Of a stretch of 64,000 nt of DNA, positions 2,115 through 61,235 are shown one piece after another; position 1 is the stretch's first letter, and every line of letters starts with the position of its first letter. Made by a program: the position numbers and the translations under genes. A model generated the notes under the pieces. The model saw only the letters and a list, made by a program, of their open reading frames with translations. It searched no databases and was not told where the DNA came from. This DNA comes from Dehalococcoidia bacterium (GTDB lineage Bacteria > Chloroflexota > Dehalococcoidia > Lucifugimonadales > Australimonadaceae), in the NCBI GenBank assembly GCA_034422795.1, contig DAOUJK010000054.1, forward strand, positions 10,347 through 74,346, written 5' to 3'.

Positions 2115-2281
2115 ATGACACACGCAGACGCAATAACGCTTTCGCGAGCGGAGTACCAGGTGCAGCTCGCCCGCATCGAGGAGCTAGAGGATATACTCGC
2201 TGCTCGCGTTGCCGACGATGGCAGGCGTACTCCCGCGATGTGGCGTTGGCTATCATCCGCGGGGAACGGCCCTTCGAATAA
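2115..2281 (+). pseudogene. Frameshifted, truncated N-terminal remnant of an XRE-type antitoxin
   Basis: RBS GGGAGGG then MTHADAITLSRAEYQVQLARIEELEDILAARVADDGRRTP; restoring one base near 2234 continues DVALAIIRGERPFE-stop, resembling the N-terminus of HTH antitoxins; the HTH itself is absent. Confidence 0.45.
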
Positions 2282-2298
2282 CCGGCACAGGAGCGCAC

Positions 2299-3165
2299 AT
2301 GCAGTTAGGCGTCGTTTTCCCGCAGAACGAGATAGGCGAGGACCCGGGCGCGGTACGCGCGTTCGCCGAGACAGCCGAGGGTCTCGGGTACGCGCACCTC
2401 ATCTTCTACGACCACGTCCTCGGTGCGGACACGCGGCGCAGGCCTGACTGGCGGGGAGCGTACTCGTACGAGGACACGTTCCACGAGCCGATGGTCACGT
2501 TCGGCTACCTCGCCGCGCTCACCAGCCGTATCGAACTCGTGACCGGGGTCATCATCCTCCCCCAGCGGCAGACGGTGCTTGTTGCCAAGCAGGCGGCGCA
2601 GGTGGACGTGCTCAGTGGTGGGCGGCTCCGCCTCGGGATCGGCATCGGCTGGAACGACGTCGAGTACGAGGGTTTGGGCGAGAACTTCCACAACCGCGGC
2701 AAACGCTCCGAGGAGCAGGTGGAGCTGTTGCGCGCCCTCTGGACGAATGAGTCCGTCGACTTTCAGGGCCGATGGCACAGCATCCCCGGCGCAGGCATCA
2801 GGCCTCTGCCGGTGCAGCGCCCCATTCCCGTCTGGTTCGGCGGCGGACGCTCGGACGGTGTGCTGCGCCGCATCGCCCGCCTGGGCGACGGCTGGTTCCC
2901 GCAACTGCAGGCCGACGAAGCGGGCAAGGAGCGGATCGAAGCGTTCCGGAACTTCGTCGCCGAGGCGGGACGCTCGCTGGATGACGTGGGCGTCGACGCC
3001 CGGGTTGCGGTGTCGCGCGGTGGGATCGACGGCGCGCTGCGGGACTGCGAAACATGGACCAGATGGGGCGTGACGCACGTATCCTTCAACACGCTGCGCG
3101 CAGGTTTTACATCGGCTGACGAGCACATCAACGCCCTGCGCCGCTTCAAAGAAGCGGCAGGGTAG
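2299..3165 (+). CDS. LLM-class F420-dependent oxidoreductase
   Basis: MQLGVVFPQ..., DHVLG, HEPMVTFGYLAA, RQTVLVAKQAAQVDVLSGGRLRLGIGIGWN; ATG at 2299 after AGGAG. Confidence 0.9.
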   Translation: MQLGVVFPQNEIGEDPGAVRAFAETAEGLGYAHLIFYDHVLGADTRRRPDWRGAYSYEDTFHEPMVTFGYLAALTSRIELVTGVIILPQRQTVLVAKQAAQVDVLSGGRLRLGIGIGWNDVEYEGLGENFHNRGKRSEEQVELLRALWTNESVDFQGRWHSIPGAGIRPLPVQRPIPVWFGGGRSDGVLRRIARLGDGWFPQLQADEAGKERIEAFRNFVAEAGRSLDDVGVDARVAVSRGGIDGALRDCETWTRWGVTHVSFNTLRAGFTSADEHINALRRFKEAAG

Positions 3166-3736: not shown

Positions 3737-4399
3737 ATGGAATGGGGTTACGCGGGGCCAACAGGCCCTGAGCATTGGGCGTCGCTCGCTCCGGAGTACG
3801 CCCCTTGCGCCGAGGGCGTGCAGCAGTCGCCGGTGGACATCGTTGGCTACGAGCGCGCCGCTGCTCCCGCGCTGTCGTTCTCGTACGGCGGCGGCGTGAG
3901 CGGGGTTGAGCTGGTGCGCGGCTCCGTCGTTGTGGAGTTCGCGTCGGGAAGCAGCCTCACGCTCGGAGAACGGCGGTACAGATTGCTGTCGGCCCATGCC
4001 CACGCTCCTGCCGAGCACCGGGTCGACGGCGAGCGGTTCGCGGCGGAACTGCACGTGGTGCATGAAGACGCGTCAGGTGACGCCCTCGTGGTCGGCGTCC
4101 TCTTCCGGATCGGCGACGCCAGTCCTGTCCTGCAGGCGATGCTCGACGCAGTCGCGGGAGAGACGGCGGACTCACTGCTCGACGCAGCGGCCTTCGCTCC
4201 CCTTGCTACTGCGTTCTACTGCTACACCGGCTCGAAGACGACTCCCCCGTGTCAGGAGCCGGTCGAGTGGGTGGTGATGCGCGATGCGGACACCGTATCG
4301 CGGGAGCAGGTGGGCGCGCTGCAGTCGTTCAGCCGCGGGCCGAACAACAGGCCGCTCCAACCGCTGCATGGGCGGAGGATCGTACTGGTTGGAGGGTAG
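3737..4399 (+). CDS. Alpha-class carbonic anhydrase
   Basis: WGYAGPTGPEHW, QSPVDI, HAHAPAEH and ELHVVH (Zn ligands), YTGSKTTPPC, NNRPLQPL; no signal peptide. Confidence 0.9.
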   Translation: MEWGYAGPTGPEHWASLAPEYAPCAEGVQQSPVDIVGYERAAAPALSFSYGGGVSGVELVRGSVVVEFASGSSLTLGERRYRLLSAHAHAPAEHRVDGERFAAELHVVHEDASGDALVVGVLFRIGDASPVLQAMLDAVAGETADSLLDAAAFAPLATAFYCYTGSKTTPPCQEPVEWVVMRDADTVSREQVGALQSFSRGPNNRPLQPLHGRRIVLVGG

Positions 4400-17486: not shown

Positions 17487-18383
17487 CTACTTCGCCTTGG
17501 AGATGACCAGCTCTCCAAACGCGGGGATCTGCTCGTCGATGATGTCGTTCTGGAACTGGACGTGGAACGTGTCGATGCCCGCCTCGCGGTACTGCTCCAC
17601 GGTCTCCAGCACCTGCTCCGCCGTTCCCATCAGCCCGCCTGGATTACCGAACACCGACGCGAGTTTCGTGGACGGGTCCTCGTCGCCGACGTAGGCGTTG
17701 CAGTTCACCACGCGGCGCAACGAGCCGGGGTCGCGTCCTGCGGCGCTCGCGGCCTCCTCGACCGCGGCGAGCTGCCCGCGATAGGCGTCGAGGTCGGACG
17801 GCCACCCGCCGTTGCGTATCCAGCCGTCGGCGACGCGCCCGGTGAGACGGAGCATGCGCGGCAGGGCGGCCCCAAGGAAGATCGGGATCGTGCCGTTCAC
17901 GGGCGTCGGCGTGACGGTTGCCCCCTCGACGCTGTAGCGCTTGCCGGCGTAGGTGAACTGCTCGTTCGCCCACGTGCCCCGCAGAATCTCGATGGCGTCG
18001 ATCAGGCCGTCGACGCGCTCGCCGGGGGTGCCGAACTCGATGCCATAGGTGGTGAAGTGGTTCTCCTGGATGCCCGTGCCGAGCGTCAGGATGAGCCGGT
18101 CGCCGCCGGTGATGTGGTCGAGCGCGGTGGCCATCTTGGAGAGCAACGCCGGGTTGCGGAACGGGACGTTGAGCGTGGAGTGCGTCACGCGAAGCCGGTT
18201 CGTCTGCAGCGCCACCGCAGTCGCGAGCGTCCAACCTTCCAGGTTGTTCTCGGGGGGCCTGTCGCTGAACGAGATGTTCTGGAAACCCGCAGCCTCGGCG
18301 GCCTGCGCTACCGCCACGACGCGGTCGTAAGGGAGTCCCCGCGGGTTGAGTCCGAACCGGATGCTGTTGCTGCTGCGCGCCAT
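17487..18383 (-). CDS. LLM-class flavin-dependent oxidoreductase
   Basis: LEGWTLATAVA, FRNPALLSKMATALDHI.GG.RL.L.LG.G, GRVADGW. Confidence 0.9.
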   Translation of the reverse strand: MARSSNSIRFGLNPRGLPYDRVVAVAQAAEAAGFQNISFSDRPPENNLEGWTLATAVALQTNRLRVTHSTLNVPFRNPALLSKMATALDHITGGDRLILTLGTGIQENHFTTYGIEFGTPGERVDGLIDAIEILRGTWANEQFTYAGKRYSVEGATVTPTPVNGTIPIFLGAALPRMLRLTGRVADGWIRNGGWPSDLDAYRGQLAAVEEAASAAGRDPGSLRRVVNCNAYVGDEDPSTKLASVFGNPGGLMGTAEQVLETVEQYREAGIDTFHVQFQNDIIDEQIPAFGELVISKAK

Positions 18384-18474: not shown

Positions 18475-18906
18475 ATGATCCCCATAACCGACGACATCAG
18501 CCTGGCCGAACATGAACTGGAGTTCCACTACGTCACTGCCGCCGGACCGGGCGGACAGAACGTGAACAAAGTCGCGACCGCCGCGCACCTGCACTTCGAC
18601 GCCGCATCCTCTCCGTCGCTGCCGGACGAGGTGAAGCGACGCCTGCGGAGTGCCGCCGGACGCAGGCTCAGCGCCAACGGCGTGCTCGTCATCAAGGCGC
18701 AGCGCTACCGCAGCCAGGAGCGCAACCGGGACGACGCCGTCGAGCGGCTCGTGAGCATCCTGCGCAATGCTGCCGTGCCTCCGCGCGCACGCCGCGCCAC
18801 GCGCCCGTCGCAGGCGTCGGTGGCGCAGCGACTGGCGGAGAAGCGGCGGCGCGGCAGCCGGAAGCAGTCGCGCTCGTCCCAGGACGGCATCGACGAGGAG
18901 GAGTAG
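18475..18906 (+). CDS. arfB: Alternative ribosome rescue factor ArfB (YaeJ)
   Basis: AAGPGGQNVNKVAT (GGQ motif), YRSQERNR, basic C-tail; TACCAT 7 nt before the ATG suggests a leaderless mRNA. Confidence 0.92.
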   Translation: MIPITDDISLAEHELEFHYVTAAGPGGQNVNKVATAAHLHFDAASSPSLPDEVKRRLRSAAGRRLSANGVLVIKAQRYRSQERNRDDAVERLVSILRNAAVPPRARRATRPSQASVAQRLAEKRRRGSRKQSRSSQDGIDEEE

Positions 18907-18909
18907 CCC

Positions 18910-20091
18910 ATGCCGAGACTCGAGGACCTGCCCGACCTGACGCGGCAGGGGATGCTGAACTTCCCCGCGTTCGACCACGACGACTCGCCGTGCGCGCGGA
19001 TGGCGAAACCGCTGAGCGAGGCGAAGATCGCGCTTGTGACGACGGCGGGCCTGCACCTCCGCGACGACGTGCCGTTCACGGGTGGGGACCAGACGTATCG
19101 CGTCATCCCGTCGTCCGCGCCCGCCTCGGGCATCATCCAGAGCCACATGAGCATCGGGTTCGACCGCACGGGCATCATGCGGGACGTGAACGTCACGTTC
19201 CCCGTAGACCGGCTGCGGGAGATGGTGGAGCGCGGCGAGATAGGCTCCGTCACGGAGAACTACTACTCGTTCATGGGGGCGCAGCGCAGCCCGCGCCGCA
19301 TCGAGGAGGAGACCGGGCCGGAGGTCGGTCGTCTACTGCTGGAGGAGGGCGCCGACGCCGCATTCCTCACGCCGACCTGACCGAACTGCACGCACACGGT
19401 CAGTGTGCTTGCGCGCGCCATCGAAGAGACGGGCCTGCCGACGGTCACCGTCGCGCTCGTCAAGGAGCATGCCCAACGGGTGAAGCCGCCCCGGACGCTG
19501 TGGGTGCCGTTCCCGTTCGGGTTCGCGCTCGGCAACCCGGACGACCCGCCCTTCCAGCAGAAGGTGCTCTCCGCTGCGCTGGGCCTGCTGTCGGAGAACG
19601 ATACCCCCGTGCTCGCCGAGTTCCCTGAGGATGCGGATGCCCCGCCGGTGCTGCTGCAGGCGAGTGCCGCGCAGGCCGATGCGGCGAACCGCAGCGGCGA
19701 CCCCGCTGACGAGGTGACGGCGCTGCGCGGCTACTATGAGCGCTGGGTGGACGAGCACGCGGGCCGGACGATGGTGGGCCTGAGCGGCGTGCCGCAGCGC
19801 CGCTTCCGCGGCCTCGTCCGCGCCATGCAGGCGTTCGCGTCCGGCGACGATACCGCGTTCGTCGACCTGGCGCCGGAGGACGTGCCGCCCGCACGGTTCG
19901 TCCGTCTCGCGTCGGACGACCTCAAGGCGTTCTTCATGGAGGCGCGCTTCTCGCAGCGTCCCAATGACCGCGACGACGAGTTGCAGCGCTGGTTCTGGTC
20001 GGAGACGGCGATGGGGCACCTCATCGCGGCCGTCGCCTCGCGTCTGGTTGAGGAGGGCGACGCGCAGGCTGCGAACGGCATCGCCCGGTAA
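18910..20091 (+). CDS. PrdB/GrdB-family reductase selenoprotein B-like, Sec at UGA 19378-19380, with extra C-terminal domain
   Basis: ORFs 18910..19380 and 19405..20091 share a frame; readthrough gives ADAAFLTPT-U-PNCTHTVSVLARAIEETGLPTV, matching the PrdB-type UxxC site; SECIS hairpin follows. Confidence 0.85.
19392..19408 (+). promoter_or_regulatory. Bacterial SECIS element
   Basis: GCACAC-GGTCA-GTGTGC hairpin; stem starts 11 nt after the UGA; G-initiated loop 17 nt after the UGA. Confidence 0.75.
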
Positions 20092-20100
20092 ACCCGGCGC

Positions 20101-20397
20101 TTAGGCGGGGCGGGTGCGCTCCTTAACGAGTTCGACGCGAAGCTGGAAGCCAAGGGCCTTGGCGATGTCATAGACGGTCTCCAGGCGCGGACTGTGTTCC
20201 CCGGACTCCAGACGGCTGACTACCGTTTTCGTCACGCCGATGCGCTCGGCTAACTCTCGCTGGCTGAGGTGGTTCTCTTTTCTGGCTTTCACGATAGCGT
20301 CTATCAATTCGAACCGGGGCCCGAGCCGCTCGTACTCACGCTGCAGTTCGGGGTCTTCGGATCGGAGTTGTTCGAACAGTTCTTTCGCGTTACGCAT
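20101..20397 (-). CDS. XRE-family HTH antitoxin (HigA-like)
   Basis: RKENHLSQRELAERIGVTKTVVSRLESGEHSP.LET. Confidence 0.88.
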   Translation of the reverse strand: MRNAKELFEQLRSEDPELQREYERLGPRFELIDAIVKARKENHLSQRELAERIGVTKTVVSRLESGEHSPRLETVYDIAKALGFQLRVELVKERTRPA

Positions 20398-20402
20398 GGT
20401 GT

Positions 20403-20744
20403 CTACTCTCTGAGTTGGAGGAGCCTCCTCCTTGCGCGGGCGACACTCTGTTCGGGGGCGCGCCGCCTTGTCTTTCTCCAGGCTTCAAGCAGGTACAACG
20501 CTCCGCCTGCCTCTCCATACGCTACGCGGTGGTCGCCTGCCCTTAACTCGTAGAGACCGATCTTCGAGTCGAGCAGCCGGTCCTGAGGCATACCGAGACC
20601 GGGGCCGTTCTCCCGTAGGAGGTCGATGTAGCGTTCCAGCGTCGCTACAGCCGAACGGTCACCGGAGCGGAGCAGTTGTTGCACGTACTCAGCTACCGGC
20701 TCCCGCTTGCGAGAGTCTTGGTAGATGGCCACACCCCAAATCAT
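20403..20744 (-). CDS. RelE/ParE-superfamily (HigB/Gp49-like) toxin
   Basis: PVAEY..., LRENGPGLGMP, LYELR, HRVAY, LLEAWRK; lies upstream of the HTH gene. Confidence 0.8.
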   Translation of the reverse strand: MIWGVAIYQDSRKREPVAEYVQQLLRSGDRSAVATLERYIDLLRENGPGLGMPQDRLLDSKIGLYELRAGDHRVAYGEAGGALYLLEAWRKTRRRAPEQSVARARRRLLQLRE

Positions 20745-59378: not shown

Positions 59379-61235
59379 ATGGTTCTCTCGCTCTCCGAAC
59401 GCTTATCCCGCGGTCTGCTGCTCTGCGACGGCGCCACCGGCACGCAGATGTACGCACATGGCCTCACCGCCGCGTTGCCGGAACCGGCGAACGTCGACCA
59501 GCCGGACATCGTGAAGGGAGTGCATCTCTCCTATCTTCGTGCAGGCGCGGAACTCATAGAGACGAACACCTTCGGCGCGAACGCCGCCAAACTCGGCGCG
59601 CACACGATGGCCTCGCGCGTGGAAGAGCTGAACCACGCCGGGGTTGCGCTGGCGAAGGAAGCGGTGCGGCTGCACGGTCAGAACGTCTGGGTTGCGGGGT
59701 CAATGGGCCCGCTGCCGCCGGACGTAACCGGGGCGGGTCTCTTCTCTCCGGCATCCGCGTGGAACGTGTTTGCGGAGCAGGCGGCTGCGCTCTCGGATGC
59801 CGGAGCGGACCTGGTCCTGCTCGAGACGTTCACCTCACTTCCGCAGCTCAGGCAAGCCATCGAGGCGGTGCAGTCCGTGTCCGAGTTGCCGGTCATCGCC
59901 CAGATGACCTTCACCGGCGACGGACTGACACCGGGCGGAGACTCTCCGGAGGAGGTTGCTGCAGCGTTGAACGACGCCGGACTGGCCGCGCTGGGCGCCA
60001 ACTGCAGCGTGGGGCCAGACCTGCTGCTGAGTGTCGTTGAGCGCATGGCGGCGACGGCCGCCGTACCACTCATCGTTCAGCCGAACGCGGGCCTGCCTGC
60101 CTACGTGGGGGGGCGGCTACAGTACGCCGCTTCCCCGGAGTACTTCGCGGAGACAGCGCGCGAGATCGCGCGCGCCGGAGCAGCGGCGATCGGCGGGTGC
60201 TGCGGGACGACGCCTGCGCATGTCGCCGCTGCCCGTGACGCGGTGCGCGGAGCCCTGCAGTCTTCAGCACGCCGTACCGCCACTCCCGCCATTGCGCGAA
60301 CGCAGCGCGTCGAGGCCCCGGCTGCTCCACCGACGGGACTGGCGGAACGCATCACGCGGGGCGAGTTCGTCGTCACAGTGGAACTGGCGCCGCCGCGCGG
60401 GTTCGACATCAGCGGAACACTGGACAAGTTACGGGGCGTCGCCGGGAGTGTCAGCGCAGTGAACGTTGCGGACAGCCCTCGCGCGCAGGGGAGGATGAGC
60501 GCACTCGCCACAGGAAGCCTCGTGCAGTCGCGGCTTGGTGTCGAGACGGTGATGCACATAGCCATCCGTCATCGCAACCTGCTGGCCTTGCACTCTGACC
60601 TGTTGGGGGCGCATGCACTCGGGTTGCGGAACGTCTTCACGGTAATGGGCGACATTCCACTCACGGGCGATTATCCCTACGCGACCGCAGTGAGCGACGT
60701 TACAGCGTCCGGGCTGATCCAACTGATGGCCGGATTCAACGAGGGCGTGGATGGGAACGGACGGGAGATCGGCCAACCAACGTCGTTCTTCATCGGCGCG
60801 GCCTTGAACTTCAACGCGCTGGACCTGGACAGGGAACTTCGCGTGCTGGAGCGCAAGGTCAAGGCCGGGGCACACTTCCTGCTGACGCAGCCGGTGTACG
60901 CGGCGGAGCACGTGGAGCGCGTGTGGTCACTACTGGGAGGATTCCCGCTTCCGGTCATCATGGGAGTGCTGCCGCTTCGGAACGCGCGTCACGCGCGTTT
61001 CCTGCACAACGAGGTCCCAGGCATCGTGGTACCGGATGACGTGATGCGGCGCATGGATCTCGCCGAGTACCGGGGCGACGCCGGCGGTAAGGAGGGCATC
61101 GCGCTGAGCCGTGAACTTCTGACGTCGCTCTCCGGGCGCATCGCGGGGGCGTATTTCATGCCGCCGTTCGAGCGTTTCAGCGTGGTGCCGGAGACGATGA
61201 AGGGGCTGTCGTTGCCAGAGCCCGGCTCGCAGTAA
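59379..61235 (+). CDS. yitJ: Bifunctional homocysteine S-methyltransferase / 5,10-methylene-THF reductase
   Basis: DGATGT, ETNTF, GANCS, PNAG, GGCCG (HMT domain); VELAPP, DSP, FLLTQP (MTHFR domain). Confidence 0.93.
   Translation: MVLSLSERLSRGLLLCDGATGTQMYAHGLTAALPEPANVDQPDIVKGVHLSYLRAGAELIETNTFGANAAKLGAHTMASRVEELNHAGVALAKEAVRLHGQNVWVAGSMGPLPPDVTGAGLFSPASAWNVFAEQAAALSDAGADLVLLETFTSLPQLRQAIEAVQSVSELPVIAQMTFTGDGLTPGGDSPEEVAAALNDAGLAALGANCSVGPDLLLSVVERMAATAAVPLIVQPNAGLPAYVGGRLQYAASPEYFAETAREIARAGAAAIGGCCGTTPAHVAAARDAVRGALQSSARRTATPAIARTQRVEAPAAPPTGLAERITRGEFVVTVELAPPRGFDISGTLDKLRGVAGSVSAVNVADSPRAQGRMSALATGSLVQSRLGVETVMHIAIRHRNLLALHSDLLGAHALGLRNVFTVMGDIPLTGDYPYATAVSDVTASGLIQLMAGFNEGVDGNGREIGQPTSFFIGAALNFNALDLDRELRVLERKVKAGAHFLLTQPVYAAEHVERVWSLLGGFPLPVIMGVLPLRNARHARFLHNEVPGIVVPDDVMRRMDLAEYRGDAGGKEGIALSRELLTSLSGRIAGAYFMPPFERFSVVPETMKGLSLPEPGSQ

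Follow-up and report, generated by a model that had tools for sequence, protein, structure and literature searches.

Does an in-frame TGA triplet end a gene in this genome of the Dehalococcoidia, or does it encode selenocysteine (Sec) in the middle of one? The question arises at positions 18910-20091 of the window, by which we mean the whole 64,000-nucleotide stretch of a Dehalococcoidia bacterium that was analysed (contig DAOUJK010000054.1). At this locus, public gene calls (ENA ERZ23495130 scaffold_270, 171 kb) cut the coding region into a product of 156 residues that matches PF07355 and a product of 228 residues without a Pfam match. An original prediction, made from the DNA letters, had proposed that a single selenoprotein of ~393 residues was being split by standard open reading frame (ORF) calling, and the public calls show the predicted cut. 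We find that 18910-20091 is very probably one genuine Sec-encoding gene, whose product would be a 393-residue selenoprotein of the GrdB/PrdB superfamily. Once the two hypothetical ORFs are merged, a conserved redox enzyme reappears, and the SAR202 lineage that carries it can be counted among the Sec users.

The coding sequence (18910..20091, forward strand) begins with an ATG at 18910 and closes with a TAA at 20089-20091, which gives 393 codons plus the stop, with Sec at residue 157. A Shine-Dalgarno sequence, GGAGG, lies 8 nt 5′ of the ATG (18897..18901, forward strand), within the 3′ end of the upstream gene arfB. The TGA at 19378..19380 is the sole in-frame stop inside the ORF; the local peptide is FLTPT-stop-PNCTHTVSV in plain translation, and FLTPT-U-PNCTHTVSVLAR when the UGA is read as selenocysteine (U157). 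Three residues on, the TGC codon at 19387..19389 encodes Cys160, the putative resolving partner in the motif U-P-N-C. The coding signal does not change at the TGA: the G+C content of third codon positions (GC3) is 0.92 before it and 0.90 after it, in the same frame, with a G+C content of ~0.47 at codon position 2. These are the values of the window's real genes, which have a GC3 of ~0.8-0.9 and a codon-position-2 G+C of ~0.45-0.5 in DNA that is 65% G+C overall. Among all in-frame TGAs of the window, only the one at 19378 has coding signal on both sides. The original prediction had therefore placed the TGA correctly, within TPT-U-PNC, and both frame and coding signal are continuous across it.

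For protein searches, the gene was read through its TGA, with cysteine (Cys) substituted for Sec. Two classes of relatives emerged from a search of 5.8 billion proteins. The first consists of fragments of ~228 residues, 60-96% identical to the window protein, that start right after the TGA; they are further instances of the split gene, from other assemblies. The second consists of full-length proteins of 394-399 residues, 43-47% identical across 100% of the query, which align end to end from MPxL through GIAR. The TGA column is occupied by Cys in 15 of 15 aligned full-length homologues, within the motif TPTCPxCTHT, as the original prediction had expected of homologues at this position. We also scanned genomes, taking one genome per species, and kept 80 loci from at least 590 encoding stretches; in related loci, tblastn alignments cover residues 1-393. 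The closest loci come from Dehalococcoidia or SAR202 metagenome-assembled genomes (MAGs), several of them from sponges, with ~87% DNA identity and 88-94% protein identity, which assigns the window to the SAR202 Chloroflexota. At the Sec column, the codon is TGA in 74 of the 80 loci, TGC or TGT (Cys) in four and TAG in two; the family favours Sec over Cys, 76 to 4. The TGA loci span Chloroflexota, Actinomycetota, Acidobacteriota, Eremiobacterota, Alpha-, Beta- and Gammaproteobacteria, Desulfobacterota, Sumerlaeota and one Clostridiales MAG, among others.

These counts bear directly on the simplest alternative, according to which the TGA is a true stop and the locus is either a pseudogene or two genes of 156 and 228 residues. 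Although gene callers cut the locus in two, most database entries of the family are such fragments and a GTG at 19405 is a possible start of the second ORF, 74 loci from many phyla share the TGA at one column amid protein sequence conserved on either side, a persistence that a nonsense mutation would not show. The Cys forms are single proteins of 394-399 residues, and the invariant U/C-P-x-C motif spans the supposed boundary between the two genes. The codon switches to TAG exactly in a lineage that uses UAG as Sec, and the hairpin described below is tied to the presence of the stop codon. We reject the pseudogene or two-gene reading as contradicted by the comparative data, namely the 74 TGA loci, the single-protein Cys forms and the linkage of the hairpin, and consider it extremely improbable.

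A second alternative accepts the read-through and drops the Sec: the UGA would be decoded by near-cognate insertion of tryptophan or cysteine, or under a reassigned code. Such decoding would agree with a window in which Sec machinery was not found (see below), but TGA is the normal stop of 16 of the 40 other genes of the window, which shows that the genome as a whole has not reassigned the codon. Neither would it account for a codon that is replaced solely by Cys in homologues and accompanied by a SECIS-type hairpin, nor for the listing of SelA, SelB and SelD in the genome of a relative whose protein is 90% identical. We give read-through without Sec hardly any credence.

The two TAG loci both belong to the Geodermatophilaceae, one in Geodermatophilus chilensis (L017:4845-4847) and one in Modestobacter sp. 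DSM 44400 (L021:5918-5920). Both retain the hairpin, as GCACAC-GGTCA-GTGTGC in Modestobacter and, identical except for the loop GGTCT, in G. chilensis. In this bacterial family, tRNA-Sec is reported to have the anticodon CUA and Sec to be encoded by UAG (PMC5330540, citing Mukai et al. 2016). The UAG-Sec selenoproteins named in the same paper are formate dehydrogenase (FDH), UGSC-motif proteins and AhpC, and, judging from the codon and its sequence context, the PrdB-like gene may be an additional example. The codon at this site tracks each lineage's own Sec codon, a pattern for which any residue other than selenocysteine would hardly account.

The original prediction had also described a selenocysteine insertion sequence (SECIS) element directly 3′ of the UGA. 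The hairpin is present at the predicted place: its upper stem begins 11 nt past the TGA and pairs GCACAC (19392-19397) perfectly with GTGTGC (19403-19408), around the G-initiated apical loop GGTCA (GGUCA in the mRNA, 19398-19402). A lower stem of 3 bp joins 19388-19390 with 19410-19412, and the SECIS-like hairpin as a whole, found by single-sequence folding, covariation and RNAalifold, occupies 19388..19412 on the forward strand. We compared it across relatives in a gap-free alignment of the 42 nt that start at the stop codon, taken from 77 Sec-form sequences, 69 of them distinct. Across the distinct sequences, 88.6% of the cells of the 7-pair upper stem are paired, and five of its seven pairs show compensatory changes, for example A-U replaced by G-C at two positions, each in ~20 sequences. 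The observed covariation score of 0.312 exceeds the column-shuffle mean of 0.172 (none of 500 shuffles reaches it), slid partner columns score no more than 0.18, and RNAalifold independently gives the same stem. In the Sec forms, the first base of the loop is an invariant G (G22) and the next is a U (U23) conserved in at least 90%. At least six of the seven pairs are kept in 61 of the 69 Sec forms, versus only two to five in all seven Cys forms, where contiguous runs do not exceed four pairs. Pairing is thus kept in Sec forms and broken in Cys forms, and the hairpin accompanies the stop codon in the way that a SECIS element should. The SECIS claim of the original prediction thus gains support from covariation in the Sec forms and decay in the Cys forms, and its single selenoprotein from the even GC3, the length of the Cys homologues and the prevalence of TGA.

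Several observations weigh against the Sec-encoding reading and its proposed chemistry. The hairpin has a folding energy that is ordinary for G+C-rich sequence (z = 0.31, no better than shuffles), ~3% of all TGA triplets in the window have a chance perfect 6-bp hairpin at the same distance, and no Rfam SECIS family matches, either at the gathering threshold across the whole window or at a permissive E-value across 19330-19480. As a single sequence, the hairpin is weak evidence, and its significance consequently rests on the comparison with relatives. The stem also overlaps a conserved coding motif, C-T-H/R-T/A-V-S/G-V/A, and protein constraint could explain part of the covariation, although the lost pairing of the Cys forms argues against this account. 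The genes selA, selB and selD and tRNA-Sec were not found in the 64-kb window. The SelA, SelB and SelD families are absent from Pfam scans of ~50 window genes, and tblastn with Escherichia coli SelA and SelD (query sequences possibly inexact) gave no match in the window or in the 80 loci (1.5 Mb). ARAGORN found no tRNA-Sec in the window or in 25 related loci, the window's tRNAs being only tRNA-Arg, tRNA-His and tRNA-Ala. Finally, we compared an AlphaFold2 model of a Cys homologue, P0041, 47% identical to the window protein, with the Protein Data Bank (PDB), and the Foldseek matches were not significant (best E 0.011, template-modelling score 0.25; no thioredoxin-fold match). With no solved structure like the model, the catalytic scheme proposed below rests on analogy.

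The genome of a close relative speaks to the machinery. Contig MPMJ01000025.1 of SAR202 cluster bacterium bin16 (MPMJ00000000) encodes the protein that is 90% identical to the window selenoprotein. For bin16, which has 65.6% G+C and an estimated size of 3.7 Mb, Table S4 lists one copy each of COG1921 SelA, COG3276 SelB and COG0709 SelD, and SelA and SelB co-occur in most sponge-symbiont bins of the same study (Slaby et al. 2017, PMC5649159). The original prediction implied selABCD elsewhere in the genome, and this listing is indirect support for that.

Two further loci of the scan deserve a separate description. In the Rhodospirillaceae MAG RS386, a second paralogue stands in tandem, immediately behind the first (L043:11228-12430), with its own in-frame TGA (PV-stop-PNCTRAVGA) and its own hairpin. 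A 2.6-kb contig binned as Nitrosopumilus sp. carries, in an archaeal bin, a Sec form with a bacterial-type hairpin, although the family is bacterial elsewhere; the contig is probably misbinned.

What kind of enzyme would this selenoprotein be? The original prediction called it a PrdB/GrdB-like UxxC reductase, and the superfamily assignment stands. The top NCBIfam match is TIGR04483 PrdB (154.3 bits, E 3.5e-45), which aligns residues 30-229 with profile positions 22-220 of 238, crossing the TGA, and defines a PrdB/GrdB-like domain with the redox motif at 18997..19596 on the forward strand. The Pfam model PF07355 GRDB matches residues 22-156 on profile positions 210-347 of 347 (43.4 bits versus a cutoff of 22, E 3.5e-11), and its match stops at the final profile position on residue 156, adjoining the Sec. 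The motif U157-P-N-C160 is at the homologous site, and the NCBIfam models of both PrdB and GrdB align over it. The GrdB-type profiles matched only at positions ~205-410, and none reached its cutoff: TIGR01917 scored 50.9 bits, NF040794 60.7, NF040795 59.2 and TIGR01918 58.8, versus cutoffs of 602, 800, 775 and 65.45, respectively. We reject a GrdB identity on these grounds, namely that only the C-terminal half of the profiles was matched, without the full two-domain architecture of ~430 residues, and that the scores lie below the cutoffs.

The protein continues past this domain. Residues 232-393 (19603..20088, forward strand) form a family-specific, mostly helical C-terminal domain of ~165 residues that has no Pfam or NCBIfam model and is conserved in every relative aligned. 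A search with this domain across 1.84 billion representatives gave 224 matches, and among the matches listed it occurs only in full-length Cys forms (at ~residues 233-394) or in post-TGA fragments, as judged by length and match position. Most database representatives with the domain are ORFs of 200-250 residues, the size and domain position expected of post-TGA fragments, and the mis-calling of this PrdB-like selenoprotein family in public protein sets looks systematic. Across 51 diverse family members aligned, the invariant residues are R64, D85, D92, N94, D100, R101, P155, P158, C160 (51 of 51), T161, E172, P194, R195, Q216, E268 and T366; within the C-terminal domain, E268, G290, E344 and T366 are near-invariant. 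The one Clostridiales MAG among the loci has, ~4.5 kb from its long form, a second and shorter PrdB-like match on the opposite strand (L065:4902-5519, reverse strand) to query residues 31-233 at 33% identity, so that this genome may have a classical PrdB of the short type alongside the long form.

Is the window protein then a genuine PrdB, the subunit of D-proline reductase (EC 1.21.4.1) that acts with the pyruvoyl subunit PrdA to convert D-proline to 5-aminovalerate? Its top NCBIfam match carries this name, UxxC is the motif listed for PrdB, and the Cys homologues are labelled 'D-proline reductase (dithiol) PrdB' by JGI; NCBI names one Cys form 'glycine/sarcosine/betaine reductase selenoprotein B family protein'. 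The name meets resistance at each further step. The score is about half of the equivalog cutoff of 300 bits for TIGR04483, and the window protein has 393 residues versus the model's 238 positions, with the extra C-terminal domain conserved family-wide. Nor was a partner found nearby: PrdA/GrdE-type, PrdC and GrdA families are absent from Pfam scans of ~50 window genes, and when neighbours were clustered across 81 loci, no partner was conserved outside the SAR202 clade, the largest true cluster comprising at most 15 of the 81. The hosts are mostly aerobic marine or soil lineages rather than Stickland fermenters, which also counts against the name. We regard the genuine PrdB reading as very unlikely, and it is at this point that the original prediction has to be narrowed: the UxxC reductase superfamily stays, whereas PrdB itself does not. 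The window selenoprotein stands alone, with a C-terminal domain of its own and no pyruvoyl partner of the PrdA/GrdE type nearby, and is therefore probably not a D-proline or glycine reductase.

A broader proposal covers the whole family, and we hold it with about equal measures of belief and doubt. Rather than a proline reductase, the ~390-residue 'PrdB' of marine and soil bacteria would be a distinct Sec-dependent reductase that stands alone and has a private C-terminal domain. In Actinomycetota it would be recharged by a dedicated lipoyl protein resembling GcvH and encoded directly downstream, and in SAR202 it would serve that group's characteristic breakdown of recalcitrant organic matter. 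The actinobacterial part of this proposal draws on four loci, two with TAG-Sec forms and two with Cys forms, where the next gene downstream encodes a GcvH-like lipoyl carrier (PF01597, motif ES[TV]KTA; L017:5675-6040, L021:6735-7109, L083:6246-6623 and L084:6199-6600). No such gene adjoins the SAR202 copy, and neither the rest of the window nor the remaining loci carry one. The lipoyl carrier is a possible dedicated dithiol electron donor.

The structure model of P0041 indicates how the redox motif may be arranged. The model is confident (predicted local distance difference test, pLDDT, 89.4; predicted template-modelling score, pTM, 0.89), with helices 266-395 packed on the N-terminal domain. 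C157-x-x-C160 lies at the N-terminus of helix 158-173, following strand 150-154, so that the modelled placement of U/C-x-x-C is the geometry of thioredoxin- or glutaredoxin-type redox centres. A search of the PDB with the family profile found no PrdB or GrdB structure; it returned only faint glutaredoxin matches on the redox motif (E 0.13-0.5).

We propose the following sequence of events, in which the decoding steps follow the standard bacterial Sec pathway and the redox reactions are deduced from the motif, the modelled fold and the known chemistry of GrdB and PrdB. When the ribosome reaches UGA-157, the hairpin 11 nt downstream, through its G+C-rich stem of 6-7 bp and the conserved G-U of its apical loop, would recruit SelB-GTP with Sec-tRNA(Sec); Sec would be incorporated and translation would go on to the TAA. 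In the finished protein, the selenolate of Sec157 would be the nucleophile of a reductive cleavage, most likely directed at a bound substrate or at an intermediate derived from it. The adduct would then be resolved by Cys160, leaving a selenenyl-sulfide that a dithiol donor would re-reduce; this donor may be thioredoxin or, in the actinobacterial relatives, the lipoyl protein.

The genes around the selenoprotein in the window are arfB, a luciferase-like oxidoreductase, an amidohydrolase, a toxin-antitoxin pair and a transporter of the major facilitator superfamily. The gene arfB (18475-18906, forward strand) encodes the ribosome-rescue peptidyl-tRNA hydrolase ArfB (NF006718, 170 bits versus a cutoff of 100), and its TAG stop at 18904-18906 lies 3 nt ahead of the selenoprotein ATG. 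The pairing of arfB with the selenoprotein defines a neighbour cluster of 14 loci, which are the window and its close SAR202-type relatives. In ten other lineages, spot checks with Pfam found heterogeneous neighbours; those seen outside the SAR202 clade include MurJ, TetR regulators, a cupin, a flavin mononucleotide (FMN) reductase and flavin monooxygenases. On the reverse strand, an HTH_3 antitoxin (20101-20397) is paired with a Gp49/HigB-like toxin (20403-20744), directly 3′ of the selenoprotein gene; an enrichment of such pairs has been reported for the genomes of sponge symbionts (PMC5649159). The public gene calls place a small ORF with a PaREP1 domain (PF05942, 17014-17448, forward strand), a family originally described in archaea, between the amidohydrolase and the luciferase-like gene. 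Two luciferase-like oxidoreductases, a gene type common in SAR202, are encoded at 2209-3165 and 17487-18383. Elsewhere in the window are a polysaccharide lyase family 8 protein (58-2079), a eukaryotic-type (alpha) carbonic anhydrase (3737-4399) and a fused homocysteine S-methyltransferase/methylenetetrahydrofolate reductase (59379-61235).

How does this gene compare with systems already known? The SECIS of E. coli fdhF is a hairpin inside the coding sequence, directly 3′ of the UGA and 11 nt away from it, with a conserved G-U in its apical loop. The window hairpin shares this position, the 11-nt spacing and the loop G-U; in contrast, its stem is shorter (6-7 bp in the upper stem, plus a weak lower stem) and has no bulged U. 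The redox site resembles that of thioredoxin and glutaredoxin, where a hydrophobic strand, T-P-T-[C/U]-P-x-C and a helix follow one another (compare PTCPFC in glutaredoxin), but the window family has no overall fold or sequence relationship to these proteins, the profile matches remaining as faint as described above. The window protein matches the C-terminal half of GrdB, GrdF and GrdH (PF07355, TIGR01917 and TIGR01918), including the Sec site. However, it does not have the N-terminal 200 residues of GrdB, and no grdA, grdE or grdC lies nearby.

The namesake of the family, the PrdB subunit of clostridial D-proline reductase, was reportedly described by Kabisch et al. in 1999. The window protein and clostridial PrdB (TIGR04483) share a homologous domain of ~200 residues with the UxxC Sec site at the equivalent place. 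They differ in length, clostridial PrdB having ~240 residues and the window protein ~165 more at its C-terminus; in gene context, as the window gene has neither prdA nor prdC nearby (64-kb window); and in host, a Stickland-fermenting clostridium versus a SAR202 member of the Chloroflexota. A literature search found no publication that sets the 390-residue stand-alone form apart from clostridial PrdB or probes its function.

The closest counterpart comes from marine metagenomic surveys. 'Proline reductase PrdB' (pfam07355, UxxC) is among the most abundant marine selenoproteins, with 42 Sec and 1 Cys sequences in the Sargasso Sea survey (Zhang, Fomenko and Gladyshev 2005, PMC1088965) and 235 Sec and 110 Cys sequences in the Global Ocean Sampling (GOS) survey (Zhang and Gladyshev 2008, PMC2398784), and recent reviews count PrdB and GrdB as UxxC selenoproteins. 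The window family is like the surveyed one in its pfam07355 domain, its UxxC Sec motif, its marine occurrence and its excess of Sec over Cys. The surveys differ in that homology alone gives the family its name there, and neither the additional C-terminal domain nor the missing PrdA partner is described. The window gene is most probably a member of this marine-survey family, having been matched to the surveys' description rather than to their sequences. It is, in sum, an unannotated member of a selenoprotein family known from surveys since 2005, real though not new, and it belongs to a widespread, Sec-preferring family that is named only after a homologous clostridial enzyme, for whose partner subunit no gene was found nearby.

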